From NCBI GenBank assembly GCA_016712345.1, contig JADJRH010000002.1, forward strand, positions 200,466-264,465: 64,000 nt of DNA, read 5' to 3'. Positions 1-40,856 of the stretch are shown in pieces. Origin of the DNA: Polyangiaceae bacterium (GTDB taxonomy: Bacteria > Myxococcota_A > Polyangia > Polyangiales > Polyangiaceae). A model generated the notes under the pieces. The model had not been told where the DNA came from. It worked only from the letters and a program-made list of their open reading frames with translations, and ran no database searches. Positions within the stretch are counted from its first letter, which is position 1. Every line of letters begins with the position of its first letter. The translations under genes were made by a program, and so were the position numbers.

Positions 1-2231
1 GTTGCTTTTCGAGCGAATGCCTGTTCAAAAAAACGCACGAGGTCGTCTCTGACGTTGGCATCAAACCGTTCGGCGGCGAGCACCAACTTGGCATCTGGGT
101 CAATGGCGCTTCCACCCGCAAATGTGGGGCGTGAACCGGCGATCATTTCGTGCAGGGTGACAGCGGCGCTCCAGCGATCGGCGGCAAAATCCCACCCATT
201 TCTACCCTCCGATCGAAGGTAAGGATCGCGGTAGACGGCAGTGCCCACCTGCACATTGGAAATGGGTAGACGCGAAAGCGAAAAGTCAAACAGGGTAAGG
301 TGGTCGGCCTGTTTGGTGGTTGAACCTACCCCCAGGTTGGCCGGTTTGATATCGCGATGAAGCACTTGGTGCTCTTCTAAATGTTCGATCGCTTGCAGCA
401 GGTCGTCGCCGTAGCGACTGGCTTCATCGAGCGAAACAGGCCCAAATCGAGCAATTTTTTGTTGGAGTGTCAACTCGCCGGCGAGGCTGAGCAGCAGACA
501 CTTTCTACCCTTCAGGGTAGGCTGACCGTGAAGCGCCACAATGCGCGCGTGCTTGTCGCGGTCGAGGTTTGAAAGGACAATTGCCTCGTCGGCGATGCGC
601 TCGTCATGGGTAGAGTCGAGCGCGATCTTGAGCGCAAACTCGCGCTCGTCTTTTAGCCTGCGCACGCGCAACACGCGCGCAGTCGCGCCGGTTCCAAGCA
701 GTTTGACCACCTGAAAGTCGCCGAGCCGCGCGTCTTTGGTCGCGGTGAGCGGATCGACCTCTTCAGGAGTGGACGCTTCATCAGGAGCGGTCGCCGCGTC
801 GAGCAAGATCTCCAACCACTCATCCACATCATCGGCTCGATTGACCGGTGCCACATCGGTGGCAAAGGTAAACACCTCGGCGATTTTGGGCGAAACGCCG
901 TCGTCTACCGTTCGGGGATCTAAGTAACGGGATCGTTCGAGCCGGCGATCAAGTTCTTCTGCCCGTTCAGCCGGCGCGCGGCCTGTGAACACAAAATAGG
1001 CGAGCGCTCCCAAGCTGAAAAGATCAGACTGAGTGCTGCGCGAAAGCGGGTTTTCACGCAGTTCGGGCGCTTGGTAAACCGCCCAATCTTCAAGTGCGAG
1101 AGCCGACCAGTGTTGGGTAAAGTCAACCCCTCCACCCGCTCCGAGTTGAAAATTGAAAAGGCGCGTGTCGATCTCGTTTGTATCGGGATGCCTGCGAACC
1201 AGCACCGATTGAGGCGAAACGGCGCCGTGAACAATGCTCTTTCGGTGGCAGTGAGAAAGCGCGCGCCCAACTTGCTCCACCATTGTCAACCGCTCCTCAA
1301 AGGGAAGCGTTGGGTTTTGGCGCATAAACGCGTCGAGCGGAACGCCCCCGGCAAAGTTGCCGAAAATGACAGTGGGACCGAGCGGCGCATCGCTCACATA
1401 ATCTGAAAGCTGGAGAACGTGCGGATGCTCGCGAACATCCCACAAAAGAGTGCTTTCACGTTCGGCCGCGCGACGAAGCTGCATCCGCCGATCCACACTC
1501 GCTTGTTGGGGCACGAGGTACACTCGCGCGCGGGTAGAAAAATTTTTATGACGATGGGTAGCTACGCGGTCTTGATATCCCGCTCCATCCACAAGCAGCT
1601 CCCCCAATTCATAACTGCCGGCCACGGCTCGACCCTTACGAGCGCGAATGCCCAGCGCTGAAAGGGCCTGCGCCACATCGTGCATGGTAGGTCGATCGAT
1701 CTTATCATTGCGATAGTTGTCAGGTGCACCCGGAAACTTATGAAACTGGACCGCCGCGGCGAGGTCTTTGCGAGTGACCACACGGATCATCCCATCGGCT
1801 TTCAGCCGAAGGTCGAGATCCGTGGCGCTCAAAAACACCAATGCCTCCACGTACGGGCATTTGGCCGGGTAGTTCATTTTCGACAAAAGGCGCGATTTAA
1901 GCACCTTTGCCTTGTAATTGCACAAGGACAGCGGCCCATCCATGTACACCGACCGGGCTTGACCCGGCGGTGTTCTATACCACTCGTGGTGATCACCTTC
2001 ATACCTGCCGGGGCCGCTTTTGATTTCGATCAAATACAGGGCTGAATAGCCCATGACCAACAGGTCAACTTCAAGCAGTCTACCCGTGGAAGGTTCAAGC
2101 AGCTCGGTGAGCGCCCACACATGAAAAGGATCGCTGTCGGGCAGAGCGGCGTAGGCAAATTCAAGCGCCTCGCGCTCGTGCGCATAAGGCGACTCTCCAA
2201 CAACGACTTTGCGAGCATTGGAAAGCGGCAT
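1..2231 (-). CDS. NERD-domain + tandem Ser/Thr protein-kinase-like protein (PglW-like architecture); 3' end runs off the left edge
   Basis: Own minus-strand translation from ATG at 2231: MPLSNARKVVVGESPYAHEREALEFAYAALPDSDPFHVWALTELLEPSTGRLLEVDLLVMGYSALYLIEIKSGPG, a NERD-type D..E.K core. A degenerate kinase-like domain follows (..HCHRKSIVHGAVSPQSVLV..), then a canonical one (VKLLGTGATARV, FALKI, HRDIKPANLG, LFDFSLS, GTAVYRDPYL). The frame stays open to position 1, so the ORF is missing from the track. Confidence 0.8.
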   Translation of the reverse strand, partial: MPLSNARKVVVGESPYAHEREALEFAYAALPDSDPFHVWALTELLEPSTGRLLEVDLLVMGYSALYLIEIKSGPGRYEGDHHEWYRTPPGQARSVYMDGPLSLCNYKAKVLKSRLLSKMNYPAKCPYVEALVFLSATDLDLRLKADGMIRVVTRKDLAAAVQFHKFPGAPDNYRNDKIDRPTMHDVAQALSALGIRARKGRAVAGSYELGELLVDGAGYQDRVATHRHKNFSTRARVYLVPQQASVDRRMQLRRAAERESTLLWDVREHPHVLQLSDYVSDAPLGPTVIFGNFAGGVPLDAFMRQNPTLPFEERLTMVEQVGRALSHCHRKSIVHGAVSPQSVLVRRHPDTNEIDTRLFNFQLGAGGGVDFTQHWSALALEDWAVYQAPELRENPLSRSTQSDLFSLGALAYFVFTGRAPAERAEELDRRLERSRYLDPRTVDDGVSPKIAEVFTFATDVAPVNRADDVDEWLEILLDAATAPDEASTPEEVDPLTATKDARLGDFQVVKLLGTGATARVLRVRRLKDEREFALKIALDSTHDERIADEAIVLSNLDRDKHARIVALHGQPTLKGRKCLLLSLAGELTLQQKIARFGPVSLDEASRYGDDLLQAIEHLEEHQVLHRDIKPANLGVGSTTKQADHLTLFDFSLSRLPISNVQVGTAVYRDPYLRSEGRNGWDFAADRWSAAVTLHEMIAGSRPTFAGGSAIDPDAKLVLAAERFDANVRDDLVRFFEQAFARKA

Positions 2232-2232
2232 G

Positions 2233-2925
2233 TCAGGTGGTGCCTCCCCTCGCAATCCGCGCATCTTCAGGTGCGGCGTCGTCGCTCACCAGGGCGCGTC
2301 CAATGGGAGTTTGACCTTCTACCGCGGTGCGCACGTCCGGGCTCTTGGTAAGATTTAACGCCAATGCCGACAAATAGGCGAGCTGACGATGGGAAGGTGG
2401 AGTGGCAATGACTGTGACTTGTTCGGCCCACGAAAGGCCCCCGTGAGAAGCAAACGCTTCAACAAGGGAAGCCACAGCCGAAGGGCCTGCAACCACCCAA
2501 CGGTCAATGGAAGACAGCGGACCCATGGCAACCGGGGTTAGCTTCACATCCCACGCGGCTGACCACGCTTGAAAAAGGGCCGAAATGCCGGCCGTAGCAG
2601 TAGATTCTACCGACGTTTGCCACAACTCTTCAGCATCTACAGGCAAAAGGCCCGGCCATTTGGCGCCGAACGCGTCGTCCTCGGCAACGGCTTTTTGAGC
2701 AAAGGTCGACCGCGCGCCAAACGCACCCGGCCATTCTGCATCGGCGTCGCGAAGCAAAAGGTCGAGCCGGTCGGCGGTGGTGAGGTCGCCCCGAAAGCCT
2801 GCCCAACGCGCATCTGCATCGGACCCAAAGCGACGACCGGTAGGTTTGCGCGCTTCGGCCCAATACAAGCCTGCGAGCGCAGTGCGGTAGAACGAGCGAA
2901 TTTCGTGGGTGGAAGGGGCTGCCAT
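2233..2925 (-). CDS. hypothetical protein, immediately upstream of and nearly abutting the NERD-kinase gene
   Basis: ORF 2233..3012. The internal ATG at 2925 (MAAPSTHEIRSFY..) is the likely start. Its TGA stop (2233-2235) lies 1 nt from the kinase ATG (2229-2231). No family recognised. Confidence 0.5.
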   Translation of the reverse strand: MAAPSTHEIRSFYRTALAGLYWAEARKPTGRRFGSDADARWAGFRGDLTTADRLDLLLRDADAEWPGAFGARSTFAQKAVAEDDAFGAKWPGLLPVDAEELWQTSVESTATAGISALFQAWSAAWDVKLTPVAMGPLSSIDRWVVAGPSAVASLVEAFASHGGLSWAEQVTVIATPPSHRQLAYLSALALNLTKSPDVRTAVEGQTPIGRALVSDDAAPEDARIARGGTT

Positions 2926-3082
2926 GGCGCGTTCGGGGCGAAGAATACACGATTCACGGCGTCTCAAGGCGCAGAATCGTCGGGGGGCGTTGCGGGGGGC
3001 GTTGCCCCTCAAGAACGAGTGCCCGTTTGAGGCCCTCTCTCGTGTGAGAGTTCAGCCGGACCAGACCTTCAAAGATCAAGCC

Positions 3083-3517
3083 ACCTAGAGCACCAATCGG
3101 TTTGATTCCGTAACCAAATGGATAGTTCACATGTGTACACAAACAGGCAGAAGCAAGGCAAGAAGGCCAGGCCCGAAGCTGCTACCCGGTGACAGACACC
3201 CAGTTCGGATCGCGTGGAGGGGGGCCCGCGGCCGACTTGCTCGGAGTTGGGGGTTAGGGAGCGAGTGACCTGTGCGCGTTCGAGCGGTGCGGTTTGGGCC
3301 CCATGCGCCACTGTCGGCGGGGAAGGGGCCCCGTCCGCGGGCGCTTGGGAAAAACCGTCACCGCGAGATGTGCACAGGTCAGGAGCGACCCGTGCGGGGG
3401 AGGAGGCGCGAGCCTCCTCCACTGGGAAAAGACTAGAGCACCTGCCGATATTTCTCGGCTTTCTCAAGTCACTAATCTTCTGATTTTACTCACGATTCAA
3501 ACCAATTGGTGTTCTAG
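3083..3517. repeat. GC-rich non-coding segment bounded by about 27-bp imperfect inverted repeats
   Basis: 3083-3109 cctagagcaccaatcggtttgattccg versus the reverse complement of 3492-3517, cctagaacaccaattggtttgaatcg (about 23/27 match). A third partial copy, ctagagcacc, sits at 3432-3441. ORFs inside look like GC shadow frames. Confidence 0.4.
3398..3419 (-). terminator. strong stem-loop (9-bp GC stem, 4-nt loop), possible terminator of the orphan toxin/immunity transcript
   Basis: ggaggaggc-gcga-gcctcctcc, about 95 nt downstream of the immunity gene stop on the minus strand. No U-tract follows. Confidence 0.3.
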
Positions 3518-4071
3518 GGAATGGTCACTTTTTCGAACAAAGCACCTGTGCATCCGGCCTGTTCCAAGCGGTTCTTCAACTCCATAGAAACGATCATCTC
3601 AACGTAAGATCCCCACAATCTGAAACAGTGAACTGGTGGTGGAATCTGACTTGTATCTAAGACTAATTTCGTGATTGACCGGTACTGACCTGCCAGATCA
3701 GCGCGGTGATCACTGGCTGTCCATTTTGTAAATCGAGATTGATTCTCATCCACGCATCGAAGAACCCGAAGGACGTTAACTGCCATCATCTGCGCGGACT
3801 CACCTAGTACAATCGGTAGGATCTGAACGTCGTCCCCGGCGACCTCTCTAAAAATGGTCGCCAACTTAGGTGTTACAATCGGGACTCCGAAACTTGTCAG
3901 CGAAAAATCTAACCTGGCTCCCCGGTGATGTATCGGAGCTGACAATGGGGTTGTCAAATGCAAAGCAATTCCGCCCTTCAGATCAGGTTCGGCACCGTCG
4001 GAAAGAGTAACTTCGCCGATGTGCCATCGGTTCGAACTTCGCATGTCGTCGAAAACTTGAAAGTACATCAT
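3514..4071 (-). CDS. polymorphic-toxin immunity protein (Imm11/DUF1629-like)
   Basis: 185-aa ORF. Its ATG overlaps the toxin stop in an ATGA (4068-4071). The C-terminus ..FRLWGSYVEMIVSMELKNRLEQAGCTGALFEKV resembles the DUF1629/Imm11 tail. Its position directly 3' of an RHS toxin tip supports the call. Confidence 0.6.
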   Translation of the reverse strand: MMYFQVFDDMRSSNRWHIGEVTLSDGAEPDLKGGIALHLTTPLSAPIHHRGARLDFSLTSFGVPIVTPKLATIFREVAGDDVQILPIVLGESAQMMAVNVLRVLRCVDENQSRFTKWTASDHRADLAGQYRSITKLVLDTSQIPPPVHCFRLWGSYVEMIVSMELKNRLEQAGCTGALFEKVTIP

Positions 4072-5552
4072 GGTTGAGTCAGTAATTTGTTAAGATCTGA
4101 ACCAGGCGTACTTAGCTCTTTGCTCATTGCGTCGAGTTCAGATCGAAAGGCTTCCGCGTACCTATCGCCCGAAAGCCCTCGGGTTGCGCGTTCCAAACGC
4201 TGGGACACTTCGCGATGATATGCTTCCGAATGGGGCCCGCGGTGTCCTGGGACTCGCACTTTATTAATTGCGTCATCGAGAGTCATTCCGGCCTTTTCGG
4301 CCATTCTTTCGAACCGCTGCGTCCACGGACCACCGTTGGATGACGAAACACGGTTCTTGTTTGTCATGATATGGTGCACCTGTCCATCCCCACCTTTTGG
4401 CGCCGACATCCATGCGTTAATCCCCGCCAAAATGTTTCCCGCACCACCCACAACGCCGACGGTAGAAACGGCAATTGCCGGCACTCCAACTGCCGCACCT
4501 ACCCCGGTCACGGTCGCCGCCCCGCCGAAGATCTCCCCACCAAGCGACGTGGCCGTGGTGTACAAACCGCCGCCAATCATCCCAAGCGCCTTGCCGCGCT
4601 CAAAGTACACCGAACGGCGCTTTACCAAGCCTTCCGCAAGGGCCGCTTCTTCGGCCACCCCTGCACCGGGTACAATGCCCAATAGTGCCCCACTAAACCC
4701 GCCCGCGATTGTCTGAAGAACGGGATGATTATACCACGGCTCGTCTTCCGCTTCCTCGTCAGGTTCGGCGGTTATGTCTTCCGATCCCGTGCTGTCCACG
4801 TCGGTTTTCGGCTCACCTACCCCGTGTTCCGCTTCTTTCTTAGGTTTGTCTTCCGTCGGCGGCCCGGCCTTTGATCCCGGTACAGAAATCTCCACATACC
4901 CACTCGGGTCCACGGGTAGGGAAGGCTCGCGCTTAGGTTCGCCGTCAAATCCGCTTGGGTCAGTATAGGTCAGCGGATTATTGAAAACGTAACTGTAGGG
5001 GTTCCACGCCTGACTGAATGTCCAATTCTGAATGATGGGATCAGTGCTCAGAAACCTACCCAACTTGGGATCAAACATTCGCCCTTTCATGTTGACTAAA
5101 CCGATCTCCCCATCGTCTTCATGCCCCGTAAATCCAAGCGAAATCGAATCTGGAAAGCTCGCAGGTATAGGGGCGCCCCACTCGGGATTTCTCCGCCGGC
5201 CGAAGGCGTCGTAACTGCGCCGCTCGGTGACCTTCCCATCGGCGTCTGTGAGTACGTCCACCGATCCCAAATGATCCGCGTGCACATACGTTGTGCCTGG
5301 TTGATTACCTCCAAGCGTGACAATCGCGATCACGCGTTCAGGCGAGTGCACATAAAATCGCTCGGTGAGCGCGTTCGCGGCGTCTTTGACACGTTCGTAC
5401 AGGTCGGCGAAATAAAGCGTTTCGTGCGTTGCGGTTAGATCGAGAGTGAACCGCGCTTGCCTGCGCAAAACGGGCTTGCCGTGCTTTGGCTCGCCTTCCT
5501 CGGGATGGTCAGAAACCAACGCGGCACCTAACAAGGTTGCCAAGCCGCCCAA
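4068..5552 (-). CDS. orphan RHS C-terminal cassette: RHS core end + Gly-rich linker + HNH/EndoVII (AHH-type) nuclease toxin
   Basis: Contains ..THETLYFADLYER..HADHLGSVDVLTDADGKVTERRSYDAFGRRR..GFTGHEDDGEIGLVNMKGRMFDPKLGRFLSTDP..NNPLTYTDPSGF, the RHS core terminus. The tip reads ..GQVHHIMTNKN..PGHRGPHSEAYHREV, an HH..N..H..H pattern. The first in-frame start is TTG and there is no ATG. Confidence 0.8.
   Translation of the reverse strand: MGGLATLLGAALVSDHPEEGEPKHGKPVLRRQARFTLDLTATHETLYFADLYERVKDAANALTERFYVHSPERVIAIVTLGGNQPGTTYVHADHLGSVDVLTDADGKVTERRSYDAFGRRRNPEWGAPIPASFPDSISLGFTGHEDDGEIGLVNMKGRMFDPKLGRFLSTDPIIQNWTFSQAWNPYSYVFNNPLTYTDPSGFDGEPKREPSLPVDPSGYVEISVPGSKAGPPTEDKPKKEAEHGVGEPKTDVDSTGSEDITAEPDEEAEDEPWYNHPVLQTIAGGFSGALLGIVPGAGVAEEAALAEGLVKRRSVYFERGKALGMIGGGLYTTATSLGGEIFGGAATVTGVGAAVGVPAIAVSTVGVVGGAGNILAGINAWMSAPKGGDGQVHHIMTNKNRVSSSNGGPWTQRFERMAEKAGMTLDDAINKVRVPGHRGPHSEAYHREVSQRLERATRGLSGDRYAEAFRSELDAMSKELSTPGSDLNKLLTQP
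4926..5436 (-). repeat. RHS-core homology block, inverted copy of 24446-24955
   Basis: Direct comparison: aaccgcaacgcacgaaacgctttatttcgccgacctgta.. is shared, and about 94 percent identity was seen over the first 96 nt aligned by eye. Identity collapses after ..gatttgacggcgaacc.aagcg.gagcc. Confidence 0.85.
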
Positions 5553-5735
5553 AAATGCGCGTGGGTGATTTTGGTGGGTAGACGACCCGCGAAGATTGTG
5601 CCCTTTTCATGATGGGCGCCTCGTTCTGGGGGCGTTCACGCTTTGTGGCGAGCCAGTCAACCGTTTCGCGTTGCGCGAAGGCCACCCAAGGGCAATGATG
5701 GGTAGGTTGCGGGGGATCTACCCATGGTTGAGGGG

Positions 5736-7622
5736 CTACTTCGGCTCCGGCGGATCGTAGATTTTCTTTACGTCGGCACCGCCCACGAACGCGTACGAGC
5801 CGGCGCTTCCATACCCATAAGCGACAATTCCAAAGGGCTTGTCACCTGACAGGTTGTGGGCGCCTTCTTGGAGCGGGCAGCGACGGGTTTCATACTCCAC
5901 ACCGGCGAGGTTGCCGGCCGGTTGGGTAGAACATCCACCCGGGGAGGTGCCGTCAATGGAGACGTTGGTGCCCACTTCGGCAACGATGACGACCCAATTT
6001 TGGTTCCACGAGCCGGGGGTTAGAATAACATATTCTGTGCGGTATTGGTCAACCGGTGGGAAGACGGTGAGGGAAGGATCGCCGATGTACGCACCGTCGC
6101 AGTATTGATTGCTGACAAGGATCTGACCAATCATGACGGGGGTGTCGGAGGTGACAACCACGTCGCCCTGGGTCCAGGTGGTTTTGACTTCACCCGGTTG
6201 GAGGGTGAATTGGTTGAATGGGGCGGGGAGGGTAGTGGTGACGTTGGTGACTTCGGCGGCGCCGACAAACCGGAGGATGTCAGGTTCTTTAAAGCCGCCC
6301 GTGGAACGCACGGGGCTGCGGGGAATGACGTAGTTTTTACCGACCGATTCCACCGGGAAGAGTTGGTCTTCAAGGTGGTCAAGGCAGCAGGTGTTGTCGG
6401 TTGTCCAACCGGGTGGGGTGGGAATGTCCACAACGCCGCCGGGAGCACCTGTGCTTTCTACCCCGGAGAATACGGCCACCGGCGCGTTGGCCGTGACAAG
6501 GGTACCTGACAAGTCGGCAATGGTTTTTGGATCGTCTTGGAATGTGCCGTCGTCCGTTTCAAGGTTGAGCACGTCAAACGGGCCAATGGTAAGACTGATG
6601 TCGCCGCCGGCTGGTGTGGCTGCAACGGGGGGATTTCCCTTGATTCGCCAGCTGGGTTTTACTTTGACAACGGTGTTGGGGGTGGTGCCGACAATGGTGA
6701 CATACGAGCGATCGAGAATGTTGAACCCGCCGAATTTGACGGGGTGGCCGGCGGGCCAGCCGATTACGCGGTAATAGGTTCCAAGTGCGTTGGTGGGTAG
6801 AAGAAGCGACGCATCGTTGGAATACGCGTTTTCAAAAACGTTGAATTGGTAGACAACGATGGGCGCGCTTGACTTAATGCGGAATGCGCGCGAGGAGAGG
6901 CAGGTTCCAGGGGAGGCGTAGTCGTTGGGTTGGACGCCGCAGTCAAGTTCACGCGTGGGTAGAACAAGGGCGTACAAGGCCCCGGGGTTGACCTCGGCGT
7001 CGGCGACTTTTGAAAGCTGGAGGGGTTGCCCGGGAGCGGCTTCGTTGATCTCAATGGAGACAACGGCTTTGGTTTGGCCGGCGTTGGAAAGCGCGACACC
7101 CCACGGTGCACTGGCCGGATCGTTGAAGCCGTCTTGTTGGTCAAGGTCAACCGCCCAAAATTCACACCCAACGTTGGAAGGTTGACCTTCTGCCACAACA
7201 CATGCGCTGATGCAGGCGCCGTTGGAACACGTTAAGCCGAGGGCCGGATCGCAGGTTTCTACCGGGGTGGTGCCGATTGTACCTTGGTCGGTGCACTGGT
7301 AGACATCATTGCCGAGGCAGGTTTTTCCACCGGGGTAACAGTCCACACAACCGAGCTTGGGAGCGCACGCTTTGGGGCATGTTTCAGGTGTGCCCGGCGT
7401 GCCGTCGCTGTTGCATGGGATGTAGGAGCCGGCGTTGCAAATGTCGCAAACATCGGAGTTGCCTCCGATGCCGCCGTTGCCGCCGTTGTTGGATGAGGTG
7501 GACGCCCCCGCGCCGCCGCCGCCTGTGGTGTTATTTGGAGCGGCGGAACAACCGAATTGAGATGGCAAAAGCGCCAAGAATAAAAGGGAAGAAATGGGTA
7601 GTAGGGTACGGCTCGAACGCAT
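5736..7622 (-). CDS. secreted Cys-rich lipoprotein, IgGFc-binding-protein-N-terminal-like domain (tentative)
   Basis: ORF 5736..7772. The likely start is the ATG at 7622, giving MRSSRTLLPISSLLFLALLPSQFGCSAAP (lipobox). A Gly/Cys-rich EGF-like stretch follows, then ..GCEFWAVDLDQQDG.. and ..VVYQFNVFENAYSNDASLLLPTNALGTYYRVIGW... Confidence 0.55.
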   Translation of the reverse strand: MRSSRTLLPISSLLFLALLPSQFGCSAAPNNTTGGGGAGASTSSNNGGNGGIGGNSDVCDICNAGSYIPCNSDGTPGTPETCPKACAPKLGCVDCYPGGKTCLGNDVYQCTDQGTIGTTPVETCDPALGLTCSNGACISACVVAEGQPSNVGCEFWAVDLDQQDGFNDPASAPWGVALSNAGQTKAVVSIEINEAAPGQPLQLSKVADAEVNPGALYALVLPTRELDCGVQPNDYASPGTCLSSRAFRIKSSAPIVVYQFNVFENAYSNDASLLLPTNALGTYYRVIGWPAGHPVKFGGFNILDRSYVTIVGTTPNTVVKVKPSWRIKGNPPVAATPAGGDISLTIGPFDVLNLETDDGTFQDDPKTIADLSGTLVTANAPVAVFSGVESTGAPGGVVDIPTPPGWTTDNTCCLDHLEDQLFPVESVGKNYVIPRSPVRSTGGFKEPDILRFVGAAEVTNVTTTLPAPFNQFTLQPGEVKTTWTQGDVVVTSDTPVMIGQILVSNQYCDGAYIGDPSLTVFPPVDQYRTEYVILTPGSWNQNWVVIVAEVGTNVSIDGTSPGGCSTQPAGNLAGVEYETRRCPLQEGAHNLSGDKPFGIVAYGYGSAGSYAFVGGADVKKIYDPPEPK

Positions 7623-7740
7623 GAGGGTAGAGTGCCCGAGTGCGCGTGAGAAGTCAGTACGAAACGACCGACGCAGTGCGGTAACTGAGACGTCTCGCAA
7701 CGACCTGAAACGCCTCGCGACGACCTGACATGTTGTACTA

Positions 7741-7892
7741 AACACGGAGGCACGGACTACACGGAGGTTCACGGAGATTTTCTATATTTCGGGCTGCAAT
7801 GGATGTCAGAAACGTTGTTTGGAACCGCGTTCTGCGAGCCGATTGCAGCCCAACAAACAAAGAAACTCCGTGTTCCTCCGTGATTCCGTGTT
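7741..7892. repeat. palindromic intergenic element with CACGGAG iteron arrays (copy A)
   Basis: Left arm aaCACGGAGgCACGGActaCACGGAGgttCACGGAGattttctatatttcGGGCTGCAATgg. The right arm is its imperfect complement: ccgATTGCAGCCCaacaaacaaagaaaCTCCGTGttcCTCCGTGattCCGTGttg. A related copy lies at 55146-55321. Confidence 0.75.
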
Positions 7893-7961
7893 GAAATGGA
7901 CGGTTCAGTTGGAGAAACGCACCAGGTTCTTGCCGGGTGGCGTCAGTTACCCAGAAGGCCC

Positions 7962-8669
7962 TTAATTGGAAGTGGCGGCGGTTTCAGAAGGAGGAGGCGA
8001 GGATGGGGAGGTGGAAGGTGTATTCAAAGCGTCATTGGAGATTTCCCAAACGAGTTGAGTGTTGCCCTGCGCTCCGGCGAAGCGAATACCAAACCACTTG
8101 GCTTTTGTGGAAATGGTGGGGCGACCCTCGGCTGTGACGCGGGGAAAACGAATGCGAAACGCCTGTCGAAACACGTTATTGTAGGGGAAATAAGTGCGTT
8201 CAATGGCGTTTGGTTTTTTAATGAGTTGAATTTCTTCAGGCGCTGTTTCGTTGCCTGTGTCGTCGATGAGCCGAACGATCCATGCGCTGTCGGGGCGGGT
8301 CAGATCGTTGTAGCGGCGCTCGCCGCCGTAGATGGCCACGAAAAACTGGTGGCGGCGTTTGGTTTCATCGAGCGCTTTTTCAAGGAGTTTTTTGCGCTCA
8401 TCAATGGTGAGGCGGTAGTCCTGAACGTAGCGGACTGTGTACGCCCAGCGAAAATCCCACGATTCAAACGTGGCTGTCGCTGTGAGGAAGTTGTCGAGTT
8501 CGCTCAGCGAAAACAGGCGTTCGGTGCGGGTCCAATGGCGAAGCACCGATTCATAATCGGTGGCGACATATTCACGCGGGCCTTCTGCGAGCGATACCAA
8601 CTGCGGTGCGCAACCGCACGCAGCAAATGCTGACACGGCGACGGTAAGCGCGGTGGAGAGGCGAAACAC
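7962..8669 (-). CDS. hypothetical lipoprotein
   Basis: GTG start. The N-terminus FRLSTALTVAVSAFAACGC has a lipobox. The C-terminal tail is Pro/Ser-rich. Confidence 0.55.
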   Translation of the reverse strand: MFRLSTALTVAVSAFAACGCAPQLVSLAEGPREYVATDYESVLRHWTRTERLFSLSELDNFLTATATFESWDFRWAYTVRYVQDYRLTIDERKKLLEKALDETKRRHQFFVAIYGGERRYNDLTRPDSAWIVRLIDDTGNETAPEEIQLIKKPNAIERTYFPYNNVFRQAFRIRFPRVTAEGRPTISTKAKWFGIRFAGAQGNTQLVWEISNDALNTPSTSPSSPPPSETAATSN

Positions 8670-8681
8670 GGCCCGACCTTA

Positions 8682-9431
8682 TCACGTGTCGTGGCCGGCT
8701 CGTTCAGCGAGTCGCACGTCGGTTTCAAGCCCGGTGAGGGCGGCTGTGTAACCGTCGCGTGCCGCTGTGCGCATTTCCATGAGAAGAGCGATTCGATGCA
8801 GGCGCGTTTCGGCGAGATCCGCCCGCGCCATCGCGTCGCGAACCACTTGAACTTGGCCTTGCCTGAGTTTGGTGGCGAGCGATCCAACGGCGATTGCCGC
8901 GATGAGGAGCACAACGAGCCCGATTCCGAGGAGGAGCGCAACGGCAAGTCCGCTGCCTTCACCTGCGAAAAGCGCTCGAAACGCGGCGATTGCGGCGAGC
9001 ACAACTCCGCCGATGAGGAGCAAAAGTGAACTGATGACACCGAGTCTTTCAGTCCACGCGGCGCGCGCGAGTTGGCGCATGGCGACGTTGCGCCAAAAGT
9101 CGGCTTCGCTGTCGAGGCGTTTGGCGAGCGATGCGAGAGCGTCGTCGGTGGACAGCTCCGGCAAGTCGGCTTGGTGAAGCAACTCAGCGGGGATGCGCGC
9201 TTCATCTCCGGCATCGGCGCTGAGCGCATCACCCACTTTTCCAAGGCCCGAACGAACGCGATTGCCAACGGCGGTCGCCACCGGCTTCACACCGGCGGCG
9301 GCCTTTTCTCCAAGTTCGGCGGCCGTGGAGCGCGCGCCTTGGAGCGCTTTTTTGGCATTGTGTACACTTGATTTTTCGTCGTCCGAGTCGGCGATTGGTG
9401 ACTTGCCCCAAGTGCTTTGTTTTTCGCTCAT
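8682..9431 (-). CDS. hypothetical membrane protein (two central TM helices)
   Basis: ATG at 9431, 3 nt after the dehydrogenase stop. Hydrophobic segments are GVISSLLLLIGGVVLAAIAAF and LAVALLLGIGLVVLLIAAIAV. Confidence 0.55.
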   Translation of the reverse strand: MSEKQSTWGKSPIADSDDEKSSVHNAKKALQGARSTAAELGEKAAAGVKPVATAVGNRVRSGLGKVGDALSADAGDEARIPAELLHQADLPELSTDDALASLAKRLDSEADFWRNVAMRQLARAAWTERLGVISSLLLLIGGVVLAAIAAFRALFAGEGSGLAVALLLGIGLVVLLIAAIAVGSLATKLRQGQVQVVRDAMARADLAETRLHRIALLMEMRTAARDGYTAALTGLETDVRLAERAGHDT

Positions 9432-9434
9432 GGA

Positions 9435-10514
9435 TTAACGCGACGAAGAGACGATTTTGGATCCTGGGGCACCTGCGCGGGCAAGCTTTTCTTCAACCAT
9501 GAGATCGGCCACGCGATACGTGGGAGTGAGTGTACTCATGCTTCGCTCGGCGATCTCGTGGATTGTGTCGTAGATCTTGAGGGTGCGGTCGCGCGAGATC
9601 GTGGCGTTGTACCCAACCACTTCTTGAGCAACGTTGATGAGGCCGCCCGCGTTGATGGCGTAATCGGGCGCGTACAAAATGCCTCGTTGATTGAGGTCGT
9701 CGCCGTGGCGAGGCTCGTGGAGCTGATTGTTGGCCGCGCCGGCCACGATTTTGGCTTTGATGCGCGGTACAGTTTCATCGTTGATGGCCGAGCCGAGCGC
9801 GCATGGGGCGAGCACGTCACATTCAATTTCAAAGATGTGGTCGAGCGGCACGATGTCGGCGCCAAACTCGCGCTGCGCGCGTTCGCTCTTGAGCGGATCC
9901 ACATCGGCCACGCTGAGCTTTGCGCCGCACGCCGCCAGCTCTTTGCAGAGGTGGTAACCCACGTGTCCAACGCCCTGAACCGCCACGTGCAGGCCTTCGA
10001 GTGAAGAGCGACCGAGTTTGAGTTGGGCGCACGCTTCAATTCCCCTTCGAACGCCGAGCGCTGTGAACGATGAGGGATCGCCCGAACCTCCATTTTTCAC
10101 ATCGACACCGGTCACGTGTTTTGTTTCGTGACGAATCAGCTCCATGTCTTCAAGGCCGGTGCCCGAGTCTTCGGCCGTGATGTACCGACCCCCAAGCGCA
10201 TCTACAAATCGCCCGAAAGCAAGGAAAAGAGCGGCCCTGTCAAACACCGGAGCGGCGGGTCGCAAGAGTACACTTTTGCCACCGCCGTGAGGTACACCTG
10301 CGAGCGCGGCCTTGTAAGTCATGCCGCGCGCGAGACGCAGCGCGTCAACCAATGCCTCCTCTTCTCGGGCGTATGCGAGGAAGCGACAACCTCCAAGCGA
10401 AGGGCCCAATCGAGTGTCGTGAATGGCAACAATGGCGCGCATTCCGCTCGCTGGATCTCGGCGAAAATGCACTTCGCCGTAATCGTAGGAGGCGAGGTGT
10501 GAAAAGACGTCCAT
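9435..10514 (-). CDS. Glu/Leu/Phe/Val dehydrogenase family (leucine/phenylalanine dehydrogenase-like)
   Basis: From the ATG at 10514: MDVFSHLASYDYGEVHFRRDPASGMRAIVAIHDTRLGPSLGGCRFL..GMTYKAALAGVPHGGGKSVLL and the Rossmann motif VAVQGVGHVGYHL. The track ORF extends upstream to 10667. Confidence 0.85.
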   Translation of the reverse strand: MDVFSHLASYDYGEVHFRRDPASGMRAIVAIHDTRLGPSLGGCRFLAYAREEEALVDALRLARGMTYKAALAGVPHGGGKSVLLRPAAPVFDRAALFLAFGRFVDALGGRYITAEDSGTGLEDMELIRHETKHVTGVDVKNGGSGDPSSFTALGVRRGIEACAQLKLGRSSLEGLHVAVQGVGHVGYHLCKELAACGAKLSVADVDPLKSERAQREFGADIVPLDHIFEIECDVLAPCALGSAINDETVPRIKAKIVAGAANNQLHEPRHGDDLNQRGILYAPDYAINAGGLINVAQEVVGYNATISRDRTLKIYDTIHEIAERSMSTLTPTYRVADLMVEEKLARAGAPGSKIVSSSR

Positions 10515-10728
10515 GGGTTTCCCTGTGCGTTGTGTGAGAGCGACTTGTTTGCGTGCCTCGTTACCACAGTGCGTCGTTTGGTGCGGTGGTTTGAGTGCGC
10601 AAAAAGTCTTTTTTTCAGGGCTCCGCGCGTCGGCGGAAGAGCAGCCGGTGATATAAGTGAACGTCATCGATCAACGCGTGGGCACTCCGCGCGGTGAGCA
10701 AAAAACTTAGAAGAAGGGTTCATCGGCG

Positions 10729-12582
10729 ATGCGGACCAAAATCATTCCGAGCGCACTGTTCCTGACCGCTCTCGCAGCGGTCGGATGCGGTGACGGCGGG
10801 GAGAGTTCCACGGGAGGAACCACCTCCACGACCCCGTCCAAACCACCCACCGTTGTCGATATTGTTGTCGACGCCAATCGCGATGGGAAACTCGATCCGG
10901 CCGATCCCGCCGATCAAGACAAAGAAAACGAATGGAGCGTCGACAGCGGCGCGTCGTTTTTGGCAAACCTCGATGACGACGACGCGGACAAGTTTCGCGA
11001 CGTAGACGACCAGATCATCAACGGGCCGGATGATGAACTCGACCTGGCGAAGATGCAGCTCGTCGCGTGGCCCGACGCTCCCGACGGTGCGCTTGGTGTA
11101 CTCCATATCGATCCGATGAGCGCCCAGAACATTCGCCTCTGGAAAAAGGGGCTCGACGGCGCTTGGTGGCTCGTCGGTGGCAACGTCGGTCCCTGCAACG
11201 AAGTGGATCCGGCGTGCACGGTGACACCCGACGTAACGTTTCCAATCGAAGAAGTGCGCGCGGGGCTCACGCTCGGGATCGAAGCGCGTTTCTTCCGTCG
11301 CTCACTTGCGCCTGAGGCGTGGACGGGCATTGTGCAGCTCGGCTATCAGGTAAACGACAAAGACGGTGCGCCGATCACCGACGACAACATTCCCGATGGG
11401 CTTGATCAGGCCAAAATTCGCGTTGCCCCGTGGATGTTGTTTGGCAACCTTTCTCCTTTTGATCGCGTTTGGTCCAACAACGTAATGCCGGCATTTGTGT
11501 CGGGTCTTTCAACGCTGTCGACGGAAGCGGGCGTTACCTACAAGAAGATCACCAACTGGCAGGATCACTGGACTCAAGACTATTTCCAAACGGGGTACAC
11601 AACGATCCCGGTTGAAAACGGCGCCGTTCAAGGCATGCGCATCGCCAACGCAAGGCCGTGGGGTCGCTGCGACTCGCCTTCGTGTTGGCCGATCAACTGG
11701 CTCAAAAAAGGGTATTTGTCGCCCGGAAACGGTGTGATCGAGATCTACAACAAGCCCAATACGGGTTCGACGTACGACTCGCATGGCAACCACGATCTGC
11801 TGCCTCCGTATGAAAACGGAGAATCAAAATATCCCTTTGGTCGCATCGCAATCGGCTCAGGTGTACTCAAAGAAACCAAAGATTTTTACGCTGCGCAGGA
11901 GGTTCAAGGCCCGCCGATCATCGTGAAAACGTCGTGGCTCTACGTGGGTCACATCGACGAAGTATTCAGTTATGTGCCCGCGAACACGCCGCGCGGGTGG
12001 AAGCTTTTGGTAGGTTCACCCAAGCTCGCAAAGTCCATGCTTGAGGCGGCTCAAGCGGCCGGACACGGCGCGGTGACCATGTTTAAAGGGCAAAAGTGGT
12101 ACACCGAAAATGGCAGTCTCATAGACGCCGAAGTTTCAATTGACGAGGTGCTCGCCAATCAAGATCTGCTTGCTGCGTCGCAAGAAGCGCAAGGCGAGAT
12201 CGACGACATGATTGCCCAACTAAAAGAAGAGGTGGGTCTGGCGGACGACGAGATCGTCGAAATGCCGTATCTGCTCCAAGACCTCTTTGGGCAGAAGGTC
12301 GCCTTTAACCCGGGCACGGCCAACATGCTTGTTGTGGCCGACCACTTGGGCATTCCCAAACCGTGGGGCCCCGTTATCGACGGTGCCGACATTTTCGAAA
12401 CCGATCTTGAAGAGCGCCTTGGAGCACCGGGCCAAAACCTCGGATCCGACGGCAACGGTCTTATCGTTCACTTCATCGACGACTGGGAGTGGTACCACGC
12501 GCTCGACGGTGAGGTGCATTGCGGCTCCAACGTGGATAGCGTGCCGCCCGCGGATCAAACTTGGTGGAAGGTGTTGAAATGA
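10729..12582 (+). CDS. eukaryote-type protein-arginine deiminase (PAD, PF03068-like) with lipoprotein signal
   Basis: MRTKIIPSALFLTALAAVGCGD carries a lipobox. Matches to PAD active-site blocks are WTQDYFQTGY, ..SWLYVGHIDEVFSYVPANTPRGWKLLVGSPK.., and the C-terminal ..DDWEWYHALDGEVHCGSN with the catalytic Cys. Confidence 0.88.
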   Translation: MRTKIIPSALFLTALAAVGCGDGGESSTGGTTSTTPSKPPTVVDIVVDANRDGKLDPADPADQDKENEWSVDSGASFLANLDDDDADKFRDVDDQIINGPDDELDLAKMQLVAWPDAPDGALGVLHIDPMSAQNIRLWKKGLDGAWWLVGGNVGPCNEVDPACTVTPDVTFPIEEVRAGLTLGIEARFFRRSLAPEAWTGIVQLGYQVNDKDGAPITDDNIPDGLDQAKIRVAPWMLFGNLSPFDRVWSNNVMPAFVSGLSTLSTEAGVTYKKITNWQDHWTQDYFQTGYTTIPVENGAVQGMRIANARPWGRCDSPSCWPINWLKKGYLSPGNGVIEIYNKPNTGSTYDSHGNHDLLPPYENGESKYPFGRIAIGSGVLKETKDFYAAQEVQGPPIIVKTSWLYVGHIDEVFSYVPANTPRGWKLLVGSPKLAKSMLEAAQAAGHGAVTMFKGQKWYTENGSLIDAEVSIDEVLANQDLLAASQEAQGEIDDMIAQLKEEVGLADDEIVEMPYLLQDLFGQKVAFNPGTANMLVVADHLGIPKPWGPVIDGADIFETDLEERLGAPGQNLGSDGNGLIVHFIDDWEWYHALDGEVHCGSNVDSVPPADQTWWKVLK

Positions 12583-19173: not shown

Positions 19174-22014
19174 ATGAACGTGCGAACGTCGTTTCCTTTA
19201 GGCAGCAATCAACGCGCGGCGAACAAGCCACCCTTGCGGCTGACTTGGTTCGCGCCGTGGGTGTTTCTGATCATCCTTTCAATCACACAAGGCGCCTGCA
19301 CCTGCATCACAAGCGAGGCGCCGCCCCCGCGCGAAATCGTCGCATGTGTACCCCAACACGAAACGCGCGCTACCAAACTTCCAACCTCCCGCGCAAGTGA
19401 AACCGCCGCCGCCGGTAGCCTGCAAGGGACATTCTCTGTCACCCCTACCGGTGAAGCTTCTTTTGTCGTTCCTATACCCACGCCACCGGGTAGAGCCGGG
19501 ATAGAGCCACGGGTAGCCCTCGCCTATAACAGCGCCGAGGGCGACGGTGTAGCGGGTCAAGGCTTTTCGCTCTCGGGTTCATCGGCGATCACGCGTTGCC
19601 CTAAGAACATGGCCCAAGATGGGGAGATCTGCGCCGTCCGGTATGACGCCGAGGATAAACTCTGTTTGGATGGTCAACCGCTTGTACAAGTCGCCGAAGA
19701 AACCGGACAACTGGAATACCGGACCTTACCCGACACCTTTGTGAAAGTGGTAGGTCATGCGCCGATCGCAGGCGTTCCGCAATGGTTTGAAGTGTTCGCT
19801 CCGAATGGCGTGATCACCGAGTATGGTAGAAGCGCCTCAACAAGACCGCGCGGACCCAACAATTCTACCCGCGCTTGGTTAGCCGCCAAAACCCACGACG
19901 GCCGCGGCAATGCGTTGATCTACGGGTATTGTTTCGCCAATGCCGAAGAGTACACCGCTGAGTACGCATTGGATGAAATTCGGTATACCCAATTTGACGG
20001 GACACCCGCCCTTGAACCGACACGGGCCGTCAAGTTTGTGTACGCGCAACGCAAGCCCGACCAAACGAGGCTTTCTTTTTCGCATGGAATGGTCGTTCAA
20101 CGCTCTTTACAACTCAACGAGATCCAAATGGTCGGCCCCGGTGAAGAATTGGTCACATGGGTGGACCTGGAGTACACAAAGAGTGAAGCCACCGGCCGCA
20201 CCTTACTCACAAAAATGGAAGAATGCGCTGCGGATGGAGTCTGTAAACCCGTTACGCTTTTTTCATACTCCACCCATGAAAAAGGCTTTATCGATCAATC
20301 TACCGAACTCGATTCGCCCACGTCCCGCAAGGCAAGCCCAATGCTTGTGGACATGGACGGCGATGGGCTTGACGATGTGTTAATCCCTGACACGCATCCC
20401 GCCCTTTCTACCCCTGCAAACCCGATCACAGAATGGCGGCTTTTCCACAATGGCACCTTGCCCGGTGAAAGTGTCACCTTTTCAGATCTGACCATTCCTT
20501 ACGTTCAAGATGACGTGTTTGTGGCCGATCCCAGCGGTCCCGCCGACCCTACCCAACTACAGCCCGAACTTGGAACGGTGCTTGATTACAACCAAGACGG
20601 CCGAAAAGATATCCTTCTCCATGACATCTACCAACAGGGGGCAACATGGAAGATTTTGATCGCCAAACCCGCCCCTCAAGCCGGACCCAACACCCCCACG
20701 TTTGAGATGGTAGATACAGGGATCGCTCGCCCCTTTGGCATCGGCGCCCAACCTGTACCACCTGCGTTGTCTACCAAAAACGGCTCCATGCACTTGGCCG
20801 ACGTCGACGGCAATCGCGTGGCCGACTTGATCCAATGCACCGATCACAGTGACTCGCTCACCGGTGACCCTTCTAAACCTGAATGGAAGGTGCACCGATG
20901 GTTGCCCGCGCACGGGGGTATACCTCTTGGATTTGACCCGGAAGGAGAAGTGATCGAAGCGCTCGAATTATACCGATGCGACGTCGACCTGAAAACGGTT
21001 GACATCGACGGAGACGGAAAAACAAATCTTCTTGTCGTGCCGCTTGAAGTGGCAGGTGATGGATCTGAAATTCAGGGCGTAAATTACGAAGCGCTTTCCC
21101 GCAACGAAAACGGCACGTGGGAAATTCGCGAAACAAACCTAACCATTCCCGCCCCAGGTGGACGCGTTGTATTTCTCGATGTGAACGGGGATGGTCTACC
21201 CGATGCAGTAGAGTCAGGTTTTTCGAACGGCGGGCTTTATACACTCCTCAACACCGGCAACGGCTTTGCACCCTCGCAGCTCAGTTTGGATGGTGGCGGT
21301 TACGGCGGGCAGGATGCGCTTTTCCGCTTTGCAACCCCAATCGACGCCAACGGAGACGGCAGGCAAGATCTTTTGGTGCCCATGTTCGCCGATGGACTCG
21401 GCGCCAGTGGTGAACCGCCCGAGTGGGTGTTTCTCATCGCACAACCGGGCATCCAATCGACGGGCACGTTCACCATCGAACCATCGGGCATTCCCTTTAA
21501 GCCGCTTTTGGGTGAAGCGGTCACTCTCGCCGATCCTCACGGGCCGCGCATCGGCGATCTGAACGGCGATGGAGCTTCGGATGTTGCCATTTGGTTGAGT
21601 GGCAAGCTCCACATTTTCGAAAATCAAGCGCGCGATCAAGACCTGTTGATCGGTGTACACCAAGGAACCAACCCGCATGATCCTACCGATCCTGAATATG
21701 TGCCCGACGTGGCCATTTCGTATGGCCATCTGACAGACTCTTCTATCACGACCAACACCGATCCAGATGCTTTGTCCAATGAGAGCGCGCTCTACCTTTC
21801 GCAATGGGACAAGGCCAATGGGTGCACCTACCCGCGACGGTGCAGCGTTGGCGCGCGCCGCGTTGTTTCGGAGTATCAGACGTTCGACGGGGTAGATGCT
21901 GGGCGCCGGTATAGCTTGCGGTACCGCGATGGACGGATATTCGTTGCACAGGGCTTTTTTGGGGTTCGGTGCGCGGTTTCTGACCGACCTCGACACCGGA
22001 GCGATCACCGCTGA
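19174..22014 (+). CDS. RHS/Tc-toxin BC-like protein, N-terminal ORF (SpvB domain + FG-GAP/VCBS propeller); probably one gene with 21896-25774
   Basis: Signal peptide ..WVFLIILSITQGAC. The SpvB/TcB N-terminal block is GTFSVTPTGEASFVVPIPTPPGRAGIEPRVALAYNS..GQGFSLSG. Repeated D.DGDG..D motifs are DMDGDGLDDVL, DVDGNRVADLI, DIDGDGKTNLL, DVNGDGLPDAV and DANGDGRQDLL. Confidence 0.85.
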   Translation: MNVRTSFPLGSNQRAANKPPLRLTWFAPWVFLIILSITQGACTCITSEAPPPREIVACVPQHETRATKLPTSRASETAAAGSLQGTFSVTPTGEASFVVPIPTPPGRAGIEPRVALAYNSAEGDGVAGQGFSLSGSSAITRCPKNMAQDGEICAVRYDAEDKLCLDGQPLVQVAEETGQLEYRTLPDTFVKVVGHAPIAGVPQWFEVFAPNGVITEYGRSASTRPRGPNNSTRAWLAAKTHDGRGNALIYGYCFANAEEYTAEYALDEIRYTQFDGTPALEPTRAVKFVYAQRKPDQTRLSFSHGMVVQRSLQLNEIQMVGPGEELVTWVDLEYTKSEATGRTLLTKMEECAADGVCKPVTLFSYSTHEKGFIDQSTELDSPTSRKASPMLVDMDGDGLDDVLIPDTHPALSTPANPITEWRLFHNGTLPGESVTFSDLTIPYVQDDVFVADPSGPADPTQLQPELGTVLDYNQDGRKDILLHDIYQQGATWKILIAKPAPQAGPNTPTFEMVDTGIARPFGIGAQPVPPALSTKNGSMHLADVDGNRVADLIQCTDHSDSLTGDPSKPEWKVHRWLPAHGGIPLGFDPEGEVIEALELYRCDVDLKTVDIDGDGKTNLLVVPLEVAGDGSEIQGVNYEALSRNENGTWEIRETNLTIPAPGGRVVFLDVNGDGLPDAVESGFSNGGLYTLLNTGNGFAPSQLSLDGGGYGGQDALFRFATPIDANGDGRQDLLVPMFADGLGASGEPPEWVFLIAQPGIQSTGTFTIEPSGIPFKPLLGEAVTLADPHGPRIGDLNGDGASDVAIWLSGKLHIFENQARDQDLLIGVHQGTNPHDPTDPEYVPDVAISYGHLTDSSITTNTDPDALSNESALYLSQWDKANGCTYPRRCSVGARRVVSEYQTFDGVDAGRRYSLRYRDGRIFVAQGFFGVRCAVSDRPRHRSDHR

Positions 22015-25000: not shown

Positions 25001-25774
25001 CCGACGAACGGGACCGCGCCACCCAAGGAGGACAAGCCCAAAGAAGAGAAGAAACACGGCGTGGGTGAAGGCGAAAACGATGTCAACACCACCGGGTTGA
25101 TCACCCCATTGGTTGACGCGGACGAAGAAGGGGAAGACGATCAACCGTGGTATCACCATCCCATCGCGCATGGGATCATCGGATTTGGCGCGGGGCTTGG
25201 ACTTGGCTATGTCCCCTTTGCTGGAATAACGGAGGAAATTCTAGAAAAAGCGCACGTACTGAATCCAGTCTCCCCGACGTATCACTATGCCAAGTCGGCG
25301 GGCATGAGCATTGGAGGGCTGATCGCCATGCTCCAGGGCTTTAATGAAATTGCGGGAGCTGTGATGCTCGCTCCCGAAATCGGTCCAGGCGGAACCGTGG
25401 CCATTTCTAACATGGCATTGGCCCAAGTGTCAGGTGGTGCACTGAATGTATACGCCGGCACGCAAGCGATGATGTCCGGGCCGAACGGACGGCAGAGCGC
25501 TGGGCCGTCCGCCACTCGCGGTGAAACTCCGGCCGCGCGTGCGGGCCGCGAAGCTCACAAGAATTGGAATCCAGGAAACGGTTTTGAAAAGGAGTTTCGA
25601 TTGCCGAGCGGTAAACGACCGGATGCGGTAAACTTCGAAACGAAAGAGGTGTTGGAATTGAAACCAAACAACCCGGAGGCAATTCGAAAAGGCGAAGCTC
25701 AACTCCGGGAATATGTTGATGAGTTGAATAAGCATTTTGGCGGTGGATTCACCGGTCGCGTAGTTACGTATTAA
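21896..25774 (+). CDS. RHS/YD-repeat protein, C-terminal ORF: RHS shell + core + PD-(D/E)xK (Tox-REase-like) nuclease tip
   Basis: Many YD repeats are present (..YDSTGLYPREHTNPAGHVTRTEFDPRLG.., ..TYGPFGKLTKVTGPDGATT..). The RHS core ends at ..PLTYTDPSGF. The tip ..FRLPSGKRPDAVNFETKEVLELKPNN.. carries PD...ExK. This ORF sits in the +1 frame relative to 19174-22014. Confidence 0.85.
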   Translation: MLGAGIACGTAMDGYSLHRAFLGFGARFLTDLDTGAITADFFDNQSFDATFQTYPFAKVRSAQWRSTPGWEGLPDPQKVELSFLNTTRLVVPTNNSKTYFTLTTENRLRRAQGEFDATAQGSSLLEYTRSVENGAANVPILRDTTAKVTNFDDVGNVLSETSATVDVNLTTTIERTVKNDVDTWNLGQVTQQKECSAANGLTQCRSIQRSFTPYGEVAGETVQDEADPTTRIEVSYGRDHHGNVTSLSAKDPKGAERTSTITYDSTGLYPREHTNPAGHVTRTEFDPRLGVVTRITDANGLVTEHQVDGFGRLTLKKRPDGTSTSFTITRTRDGAHNQNAWRIRERTIETGGQDEEIERDAFGRVVQHWWYGPTPEGQTNAPRITQRFEYDRLTGRVARRSIPMREDAAPNKVEWDEFVTDGLGREVKRTTAFGATTETEFDGLTIKTTDPLGNVSIAENDALGRKIAVTDAANGVTVYTYGPFGKLTKVTGPDGATTLTTFDAMGRPVETVDPDKGGTQQTYNAFGELVSLVDALGNETTFERDPLGRVTKRLDDLGATTEITTWTFDTAPNGKGKIHHVKSIDAEKTYTYDKLGRVESVSLEVTGNGPAITGKIGYDLFGRVETLTYPTAKSSVPFAVVQDYDAHGFTRKVRDRNIDLTYWQLTGVDDAGRFAQEQMGNGVSTTHRTYFAAQQRLRNITTENAAGLVQSLEFEWDARLNLKSRTDDLQPQHTTERFRYDALERLTCSYFSTQEDVSAPCDWSYQYAPNGNLTYKSDVGTLEYNDPTHPHGATAAGGAAYQYDATGNQTARPVGVKVAYTAFDLPRTITQPSGVISFGYDGDQKRVRKTTATHETLYFADLYERMKDAANALTERFYVRSPERVIAIVTRGGNQPGTMYVHADHLGSVDVLTDADGKVTERRSYDAFGQRRNPEWGAPIPASFPDSTSLGYTGHEDDGEIGLVNMKGRMFDPKLGRFLSTDPIVQDWTFSQAWNPYSYVFNNPLTYTDPSGFDGEPKREPGVVYMPEANIKVPVPTNGTAPPKEDKPKEEKKHGVGEGENDVNTTGLITPLVDADEEGEDDQPWYHHPIAHGIIGFGAGLGLGYVPFAGITEEILEKAHVLNPVSPTYHYAKSAGMSIGGLIAMLQGFNEIAGAVMLAPEIGPGGTVAISNMALAQVSGGALNVYAGTQAMMSGPNGRQSAGPSATRGETPAARAGREAHKNWNPGNGFEKEFRLPSGKRPDAVNFETKEVLELKPNNPEAIRKGEAQLREYVDELNKHFGGGFTGRVVTY
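24446..24955 (+). repeat. RHS-core homology block, inverted copy of 4926-5436
   Basis: See 4926-5436. Protein level: THETLYFADLYERMKDAANALTERFYV..FDGEPKREP versus THETLYFADLYERVKDAANALTERFYV..FDGEPKREP. Confidence 0.85.
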
Positions 25775-40799: not shown

Positions 40800-40856
40800 T
40801 GCACGGGGCCCCGTCGAAGTCGACAAGACATCGCAGCCGCGCTATCGAATTGAGCC

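Follow-up and report, generated by a model that had tools for sequence, protein, structure and literature searches.

At the left edge of a 64,000-nucleotide stretch of a Polyangiaceae genome (contig JADJRH010000002.1; hereafter the window), the minus strand very likely carries the start of a BREX type 2 operon: positions 1–2231 would encode the N-terminal half of a PglW protein of the Polyangiaceae, and the operon would open with the gene for a 230-residue partner protein placed directly upstream of pglW. The BREX type 2 system and the architecture of PglW are already known, and myxobacterial examples are found in the alignments of a survey published in 2026; as one more PglW, the main finding is an ordinary one. 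The part worth following is the unlisted family of small partner proteins, which is new, being present neither in the libraries searched nor in the literature examined. Among the common BREX types, moreover, type 2 is understood least, and what PglW does in it is still conjecture.

The pglW fragment starts with an ATG at positions 2231–2229 and runs through 743 codons and two additional bases up to position 1 without a stop codon, which corresponds to the 5′ 53% of the gene. An earlier reading of this DNA, made from its letters alone (the sequence-only reading), had described an N-terminal NERD core, followed by a kinase-like domain with a degenerate catalytic loop and by a canonical kinase, in a frame still open at position 1; all of the motifs that it quoted are present. 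The NERD domain, a nuclease domain of the PD-(D/E)xK type, covers residues 26–134 (positions 1830–2156, minus strand; Pfam PF08378, 32.4 bits, cut-off 22.1), and its core, EVDLLVMGYSALYLIEIKSGPG at residues 54–75, contains the PD-(D/E)xK residues D56, E69 and K71, which are kept in 15 relatives. The pseudokinase, at about residues 205–488 (positions 768–1619, minus strand), corresponds to the other stretch matched by Pfam Pkinase besides the canonical kinase, and the kinase-family models of PADLOC match residues 200–488; here, the string HGAVSPQSVLV at residues 335–345 stands in place of the HRDxKxxN catalytic loop, without the HRD aspartate, N360-F-Q is found instead of DFG, and in the alignment with relatives the β3 lysine is missing. 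The Hanks-type Ser/Thr kinase begins at residue 506 and extends to the window edge (positions 3–716, minus strand; Pfam Pkinase at residues 506–704, E = 7.8e-39); it shows a glycine loop at residues 513–518, K535 within the sequence FALK, HRDIKPANLG at residues 625–634 (H625-R-D627, N632) and D649-F-S, and in the alignment these motifs are kept in all 15 of 15 relatives, save for one HKD variant. As judged from its residues, the fragment combines an apparently active NERD nuclease core with two kinase domains, of which the first is catalytically dead and the second, of the Hanks type, is intact.

NERD, pseudokinase and active kinase domains also make up the N-terminal half of PglW, the C-terminal half of which is formed by a domain resembling the C-terminal domain of the RNA polymerase alpha subunit (alpha-CTD), three winged-helix modules and an inactive STAND ATPase (PMC12839542). 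The tandem kinase-like domains that the sequence-only reading had named for PglW are recovered here as the two Pfam Pkinase stretches, the first dead and the second intact. The PglW of Streptomyces coelicolor (SCO6628), the known protein of BREX type 2 or Pgl, has the same domain order, and the match of the fragment to the PglW profiles is continuous over their first 751–754 positions; the S. coelicolor protein autophosphorylates, and a mutant in a conserved lysine, K677A, loses phage resistance (PMC4365076); it is the only PglW for which resistance is known to depend on the kinase. The present case differs from the known PglW in that, of about 1440 residues, the first 743 alone lie in the window, in that the clade is myxobacterial, and in the extra 230-residue gene joined upstream of pglW. 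Actinomycetes account for 1039 of the 1309 catalogued BREX type 2 taxa (PMC12839542).

In a search with the defence-system models of PADLOC, a check that the sequence-only reading had suggested, PglW (PDLC02512) was the best family, with 721.5 bits (E = 6e-217; residues 6–742 against profile positions 4–754 of 1403), and the NCBIfam model BREX_PglW (NF033442) matched with 671.7 bits (E = 2.5e-201; profile positions 6–751 of 1391). With E-values of this order, chance is excluded as the source of the match. The equivalog cut-off of NF033442, 990 bits, lies beyond what a half-length fragment can score; it is passed, with 1013.4 bits, by the closest relative of full length, a PglW of 1445 residues with 77.6% identity across the shared 740 residues. 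In relatives the alignment reaches the end of the PglW profiles, and the alpha-CTD-like domain (PF03118) is present. The best match to the fragment in a collection of 5.8 billion proteins has 76% identity, and a scan of species-representative genomes returned only relatives with at most 74% identity; the pglW genes annotated by RefSeq on plasmids of Thiodictyon, Sphaerotilus, Polaromonas and Streptomyces show 31–35% identity over 95–100% of the fragment.

The family ranked next was MAD6, of the methylation-associated defence system, with 158 bits in PADLOC and 264.1 bits in NCBIfam (NF047741), so that PglW scores 2.5 to 4.5 times higher; below MAD6 came PD-T4-6 kinases, MkoA and generic Ser/Thr kinases. 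The NCBIfam match to MAD6 spans residues 9–573, with the N-terminal NERD and kinase modules in common, weaker matches to mad6 and MkoA are seen in PADLOC, and the arrangement of NERD, pseudokinase and kinase is shared by some DndF proteins (PMC12839542). The fragment could, on these grounds, be assigned to another defence protein of this build, namely MAD6, a kinase-bearing DndF or an MkoA-like protein of Mokosh, an assignment that we hold to be very improbable. The MAD6 cut-off of 460 bits is reached neither by the fragment nor by its full-length relative (281.5 bits); MAD6, of about 610 residues, is without the C-terminal half of PglW that relatives of the present protein have; the PglW alignment is unbroken across the fragment, and the close relatives all run into PglW C-terminal halves and BREX type 2 operons.

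Myxobacteria encode very many Hanks kinases, and an ordinary signalling kinase, which would carry its NERD domain by chance and play no part in defence, has therefore to be weighed as well. Indeed, a 1321-residue open reading frame elsewhere in the window (positions 36861–40826, minus strand), which encodes an ordinary Hanks kinase and is unrelated to pglW, gives weak matches to PglW queries (26–33% identity over 87–300 residues). Generic kinase families, however, stay below 135 bits on the fragment, as against 672–721 bits for PglW, and in the homologue list from the 5.8-billion-protein collection the PglW-like proteins reach down to 154 bits and are followed by matches of 69 bits or less; moreover, the relatives sit in BREX type 2 operons and in defence islands (see below). 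The chance that the fragment belongs to a housekeeping kinase is, in our view, close to negligible. The PglW-like identity put forward in the sequence-only reading is thus borne out by the profile scores, and the outcomes that the same reading had said would refute its proposal did not arise; the protein groups with PglW and not with the housekeeping kinases.

What lies beyond the left edge of the window can be judged from the relatives. An exact 45-mer taken at that edge had no match among metagenome contigs, and exact look-ups of the 230-residue protein and of the Imm11 protein encoded upstream of it yielded no DNA record. The closest long relative (locus L092; GCA_964269505.1, a 2.79-Mb contig), the one with the 77.6%-identical PglW, has a complete and co-directional BREX type 2 operon. 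Its order is the small gene (208 residues as called), PglW (1445 residues), PglX (1211 residues; BREX-2 type, 1215.7 bits), the Septu pair PtuA (544.5 bits) and PtuB (197 bits), assigned by PADLOC and located at positions 10001–11940 of the locus, PglY (1159 residues; PADLOC, 1116.5 bits), PglZ (934 residues; BREX-2 type, 472 bits), BrxD (598 bits) and, at the end, a BrxHI helicase split between two gene calls. Because the complete BREX type 2 operon of this relative begins with the same two genes, the assignment of the fragment to PglW is supported, and the system is a known one. The small gene, PglW, PglX and PglY follow one another in Enhygromyxa salina DSM 15201 (L005; contig NZ_JMCC02000021.1, from about 142.8 to 155.3 kb and onward); the small gene is followed by PglW and PglX on a 2.5-Mb contig of a metagenome-assembled genome (MAG; L006), and PglW, a fragmented PglX, an ATPase pair and PglY are found in a Byssovorax MAG. 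Of the 24 loci whose sequence extends 1.5 kb or more past PglW, 22 have PglX after PglW, the gap between them being mostly below 250 nt, with inserts of 1.0–6.6 kb in three loci.

The material inserted between pglW and pglX amounts to 6.6 kb in L090 and 2.4 kb in L023, and consists of an ATPase in Polaromonas and of three genes in Streptomyces; between pglX and pglY, the Septu pair is present in the two closest relatives, L092 and L008 (positions 7996–9949 in L008; the PADLOC assignment is for the pair in L092). Both junctions look like insertion hot spots. In the loci of E. salina (L005, positions 1963–9264) and of the 2.5-Mb MAG contig (L006, positions 2713–9126), the BREX type 2 genes abut defence genes on the opposite strand, which code for MkoA-like (Mokosh), DrmC/PLD-like and RtcR-like proteins and for a ZacA/ZacB/ZacC set. 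Since their flanks carry Mokosh-like and ZacABC genes, these two loci lie in defence islands.

By synteny with the relatives, it is highly probable that a complete BREX type 2 operon continues off the window. The remainder of pglW, leftward of position 1, would then encode the alpha-CTD-like domain, the three winged-helix modules and the inactive STAND ATPase, and beyond it would lie pglX (adenine methyltransferase), pglY (ATPase), pglZ (phosphatase/nuclease), brxD and brxHI; within the 64-kb window, tblastn found no homologues of pglX, pglY, pglZ, brxD or brxHI. According to the literature, PglX methylates or marks DNA. It has been proposed that PglW would sense infection by means of its C-terminal DNA-binding and STAND modules and would pass the signal on through phosphorylation; its NERD nuclease would serve as a back-up effector and might be suicidal.

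Several observations weigh against this picture of an intact operon. For this genome, pglX, pglY, pglZ, brxD and brxHI would all be situated beyond the window edge and are supplied by the synteny of relatives, some of which have a split pglW (two pieces in L008, L090 and L091) or insertions after pglW. In addition, the 5.8-billion-protein collection contains four neighbour proteins from this MAG (MBK8255149, MBK8255154, MBK8255159 and MBK8255160) but not its PglW; for this reason, pglW of this genome may carry a pseudogene annotation or contain a disruption off the window. The missing protein and the split gene calls, along with the two of 24 relatives that are without PglX in the available sequence, would fit a decayed or orphan pglW, that is, a gene with a frameshift or truncation off the window, or one whose BREX partners were lost, leaving no working system. 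We consider this quite unlikely, as the 743 codons are uninterrupted and every catalytic motif is conserved, the upstream partner gene and the 1-nt junction are intact, PglX is kept in the other 22 relatives, and split calls can be errors of MAG assembly.

The first gene of the operon occupies positions 2233–2925 on the minus strand, with its ATG at 2925 and its TGA at 2235–2233, and the 230-residue product matches MBK8255149.1 (IPK82_21115), encoded on a 738,087-bp contig of a Polyangiaceae MAG, with 100% identity. Three further proteins of the window come from this MAG, and the locus tags increase with window position, so that pglW should be IPK82_21110. This gene had been described in the sequence-only reading as almost fused to the kinase gene, with its stop 1 nt away from the kinase ATG, and so it is: the junction, TGA-C-ATG (positions 2229–2235, minus strand), read directly from the sequence, has a single-base spacer at position 2232, and a GGAGG-like stretch is seen 11 nt upstream of the pglW ATG. 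The two genes are co-transcribed and are probably translationally coupled. A scan of positions ~2100–4300 for sigma-70 promoters and for terminators gave nothing better than shuffled sequence. The start of the operon is placed at the 230-residue gene because no neighbour upstream of it is common to the relatives.

Comparison of the 230-residue protein with the neighbours of PglW homologues, also suggested in the sequence-only reading, turned out to be the most informative step. From 80 metagenome loci picked solely by similarity to the small protein, 62 had at least 300 bp of sequence downstream; a PglW homologue follows immediately, on the same strand, in 59 of these, and the three exceptions are truncated matches. 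In the reverse direction, the small gene was present in every testable locus picked by similarity to PglW (7/7). Across 70 loci, the median stop-to-start distance between the two genes is 1 nt, and in 68 of them the distance lies between −10 and +20 nt. HMMER, run exhaustively over 1.84 billion representatives, placed 333 representative clusters in the family. Among the matches listed, members that are not fragments are mostly of ~220–260 residues and none is a large multidomain fusion; the named members come from Polyangiaceae, Sorangium, Myxococcales and 'Deltaproteobacteria'. A tblastn search of 72,556 plasmids, among them those with the Polaromonas and Streptomyces BREX type 2 loci, gave no match to the family. 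Thus, from the linkage counts, the gap sizes and the lack of matches on plasmids, the family is a strictly linked, clade-specific and coupled first gene of this type of BREX type 2 operon, without a detectable homologue in the PglW loci of other clades.

The 230-residue protein has no match in Pfam, PADLOC or NCBIfam, so that defence-system finders would miss one gene of these operons; by the same token, experiments on BREX type 2 systems of the myxobacterial type in which only the six named genes are cloned might omit a required part. No description of a small gene upstream of pglW was found in the literature examined, and the 2026 BREX survey does not mention the family in its main text. Two possible origins of the gene were considered and rejected: that it is a split-off N-terminus of PglX, since the cognate PglX is full length against the PglX profile, and that it replaces a domain lost from this clade of PglW, since PglW aligns to both ends of its profile.

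The slot in front of pglW is filled in some proteobacterial loci by a helix-turn-helix (HTH) regulator, which is likewise first in the operon and overlaps or abuts the pglW start. On the Polaromonas plasmid pPNAP01, the gene for a 73-residue HTH regulator (WP_011797941.1) overlaps the start of pglW by 4 nt, and on a Sphaerotilus plasmid an HTH regulator is annotated under the start of the pglW match; on the Streptomyces plasmid, no gene is annotated within 700 bp before pglW. By position, the 230-residue protein could thus be a regulator of the operon; as its first place in the operon and its tight coupling also resemble antitoxin–toxin pairs, it could alternatively be an antitoxin-like inhibitor of the nuclease or kinase of PglW. 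Neither role seems likely to us. Whereas the proteobacterial regulator is a protein of 73 residues with a helix-turn-helix, the present protein has 230 residues and another predicted fold, the neighbours of which are methyltransferases and not regulators (see below), and no DNA-binding domain is detected in it. When 27 family members were compared with Pfam at E-values up to 5, only scattered noise was returned: an HTH or other DNA-binding family was detected in 0 of the 27, and no methyltransferase family (N6_Mtase, HsdM_N, Eco57I and others) was matched. The inhibitor version is, in any case, compatible with a partner protein that acts on PglW, and is hardly a rival to it.

An AlphaFold2 model of the 230-residue protein, built from 27 sequences, has a predicted local distance difference test score (pLDDT) of 90.7 and a predicted template modelling score (pTM) of 0.89, and shows six helices in residues 6–125 followed by a four-stranded alpha/beta part. 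Residues 21–100 are the best conserved part of the protein, and the strings GPSA and TPPxHRQ are nearly invariant. The ten best structural matches of the model are all adenine-specific DNA methyltransferases, after which come partial Rossmann matches of 70–100 residues. Foldseek against the PDB placed HsdM at the top (2okc; E = 9e-3, probability 0.99), and against viral models adenine methyltransferases were again at the top, none of them significant; a sequence profile search of the PDB with the protein returned nothing at E-values up to 10. As modelled, the fold most resembles the N-terminal helical bundle and part of the Rossmann domain of PglX and HsdM. The N-terminal helical bundle of PglX is homologous to the N-terminal domain of HsdM and has been proposed as an interface for other BREX components (PMC12839542).

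The likeness to PglX/BrxX (PDB 8c45) and to HsdM (2okc, 3khk, 3lkd) goes with a sequence identity of only 8–13%, and the methyltransferases have seven strands and 430–1220 residues, as compared to four strands and 230 residues in the small protein, which is, in addition, without a target-recognition domain. Three observations argue against a relationship with the methyltransferases: the model has only four strands; the catalytic motif IV, (D/N/S)PP(Y/F/W), is absent in 27 of 27 aligned members, the nearest conserved string being TPPxHRQ, after the second strand; and an hhalign comparison of the family profile with 15 cognate PglX proteins gave a probability of 0.05%. By any sequence test, then, the protein is not a methyltransferase. 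It could instead be a catalytically inactive relic, or a mimic, of the helical bundle and half-Rossmann region of PglX/HsdM. Made in step with PglW, such a protein would probably bind PglW or PglX and serve as a non-enzymatic regulatory or bridging subunit; taking the predicted fold and the linkage together, an inactive methyltransferase-like module with this function is a plausible but tentative proposal.

A more specific version of this proposal, which we regard as speculative and on balance doubtful, is that the family represents an undescribed seventh component of a myxobacterial-type subclade of BREX type 2. A dead, truncated copy or a mimic of the N-terminal part of PglX/HsdM, produced in a fixed ratio with PglW, might attach to PglW, or contend with PglX for the same interface, and might in this way link the kinase–nuclease sensor to the methyltransferase. 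If true, this would offer a way into the question of how PglW and the system's modification arm communicate.

Upstream of the operon, an unassigned 132-residue open reading frame (positions 3069–3467) separates the operon start from a toxin–immunity pair on the minus strand (positions 3514–5552), which consists of an orphan Rhs C-terminal tip of 494 residues, with an RHS-associated core and an AHH nuclease toxin, followed by an Imm11 immunity gene (185 residues). Further on, positions 5736–7772 (minus strand) encode a 678-residue protein with an IgGFc_binding domain (E = 6e-61). From about 9.4 kb onwards the assignable genes are ordinary, save for a second Rhs toxin locus at 19–26 kb; there, on the plus strand (positions 19174–25774), a SpvB/TcdB/FG-GAP protein of 946 residues is found with an RHS-repeat protein of 1292 residues that ends in a Tox-REase-9 nuclease domain. 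Finally, a 617-residue protein encoded at positions 10729–12582 on the plus strand (MBK8255154.1) matches the protein-arginine deiminase (PAD) family with an E-value of 5e-77, a family that is uncommon in bacteria.

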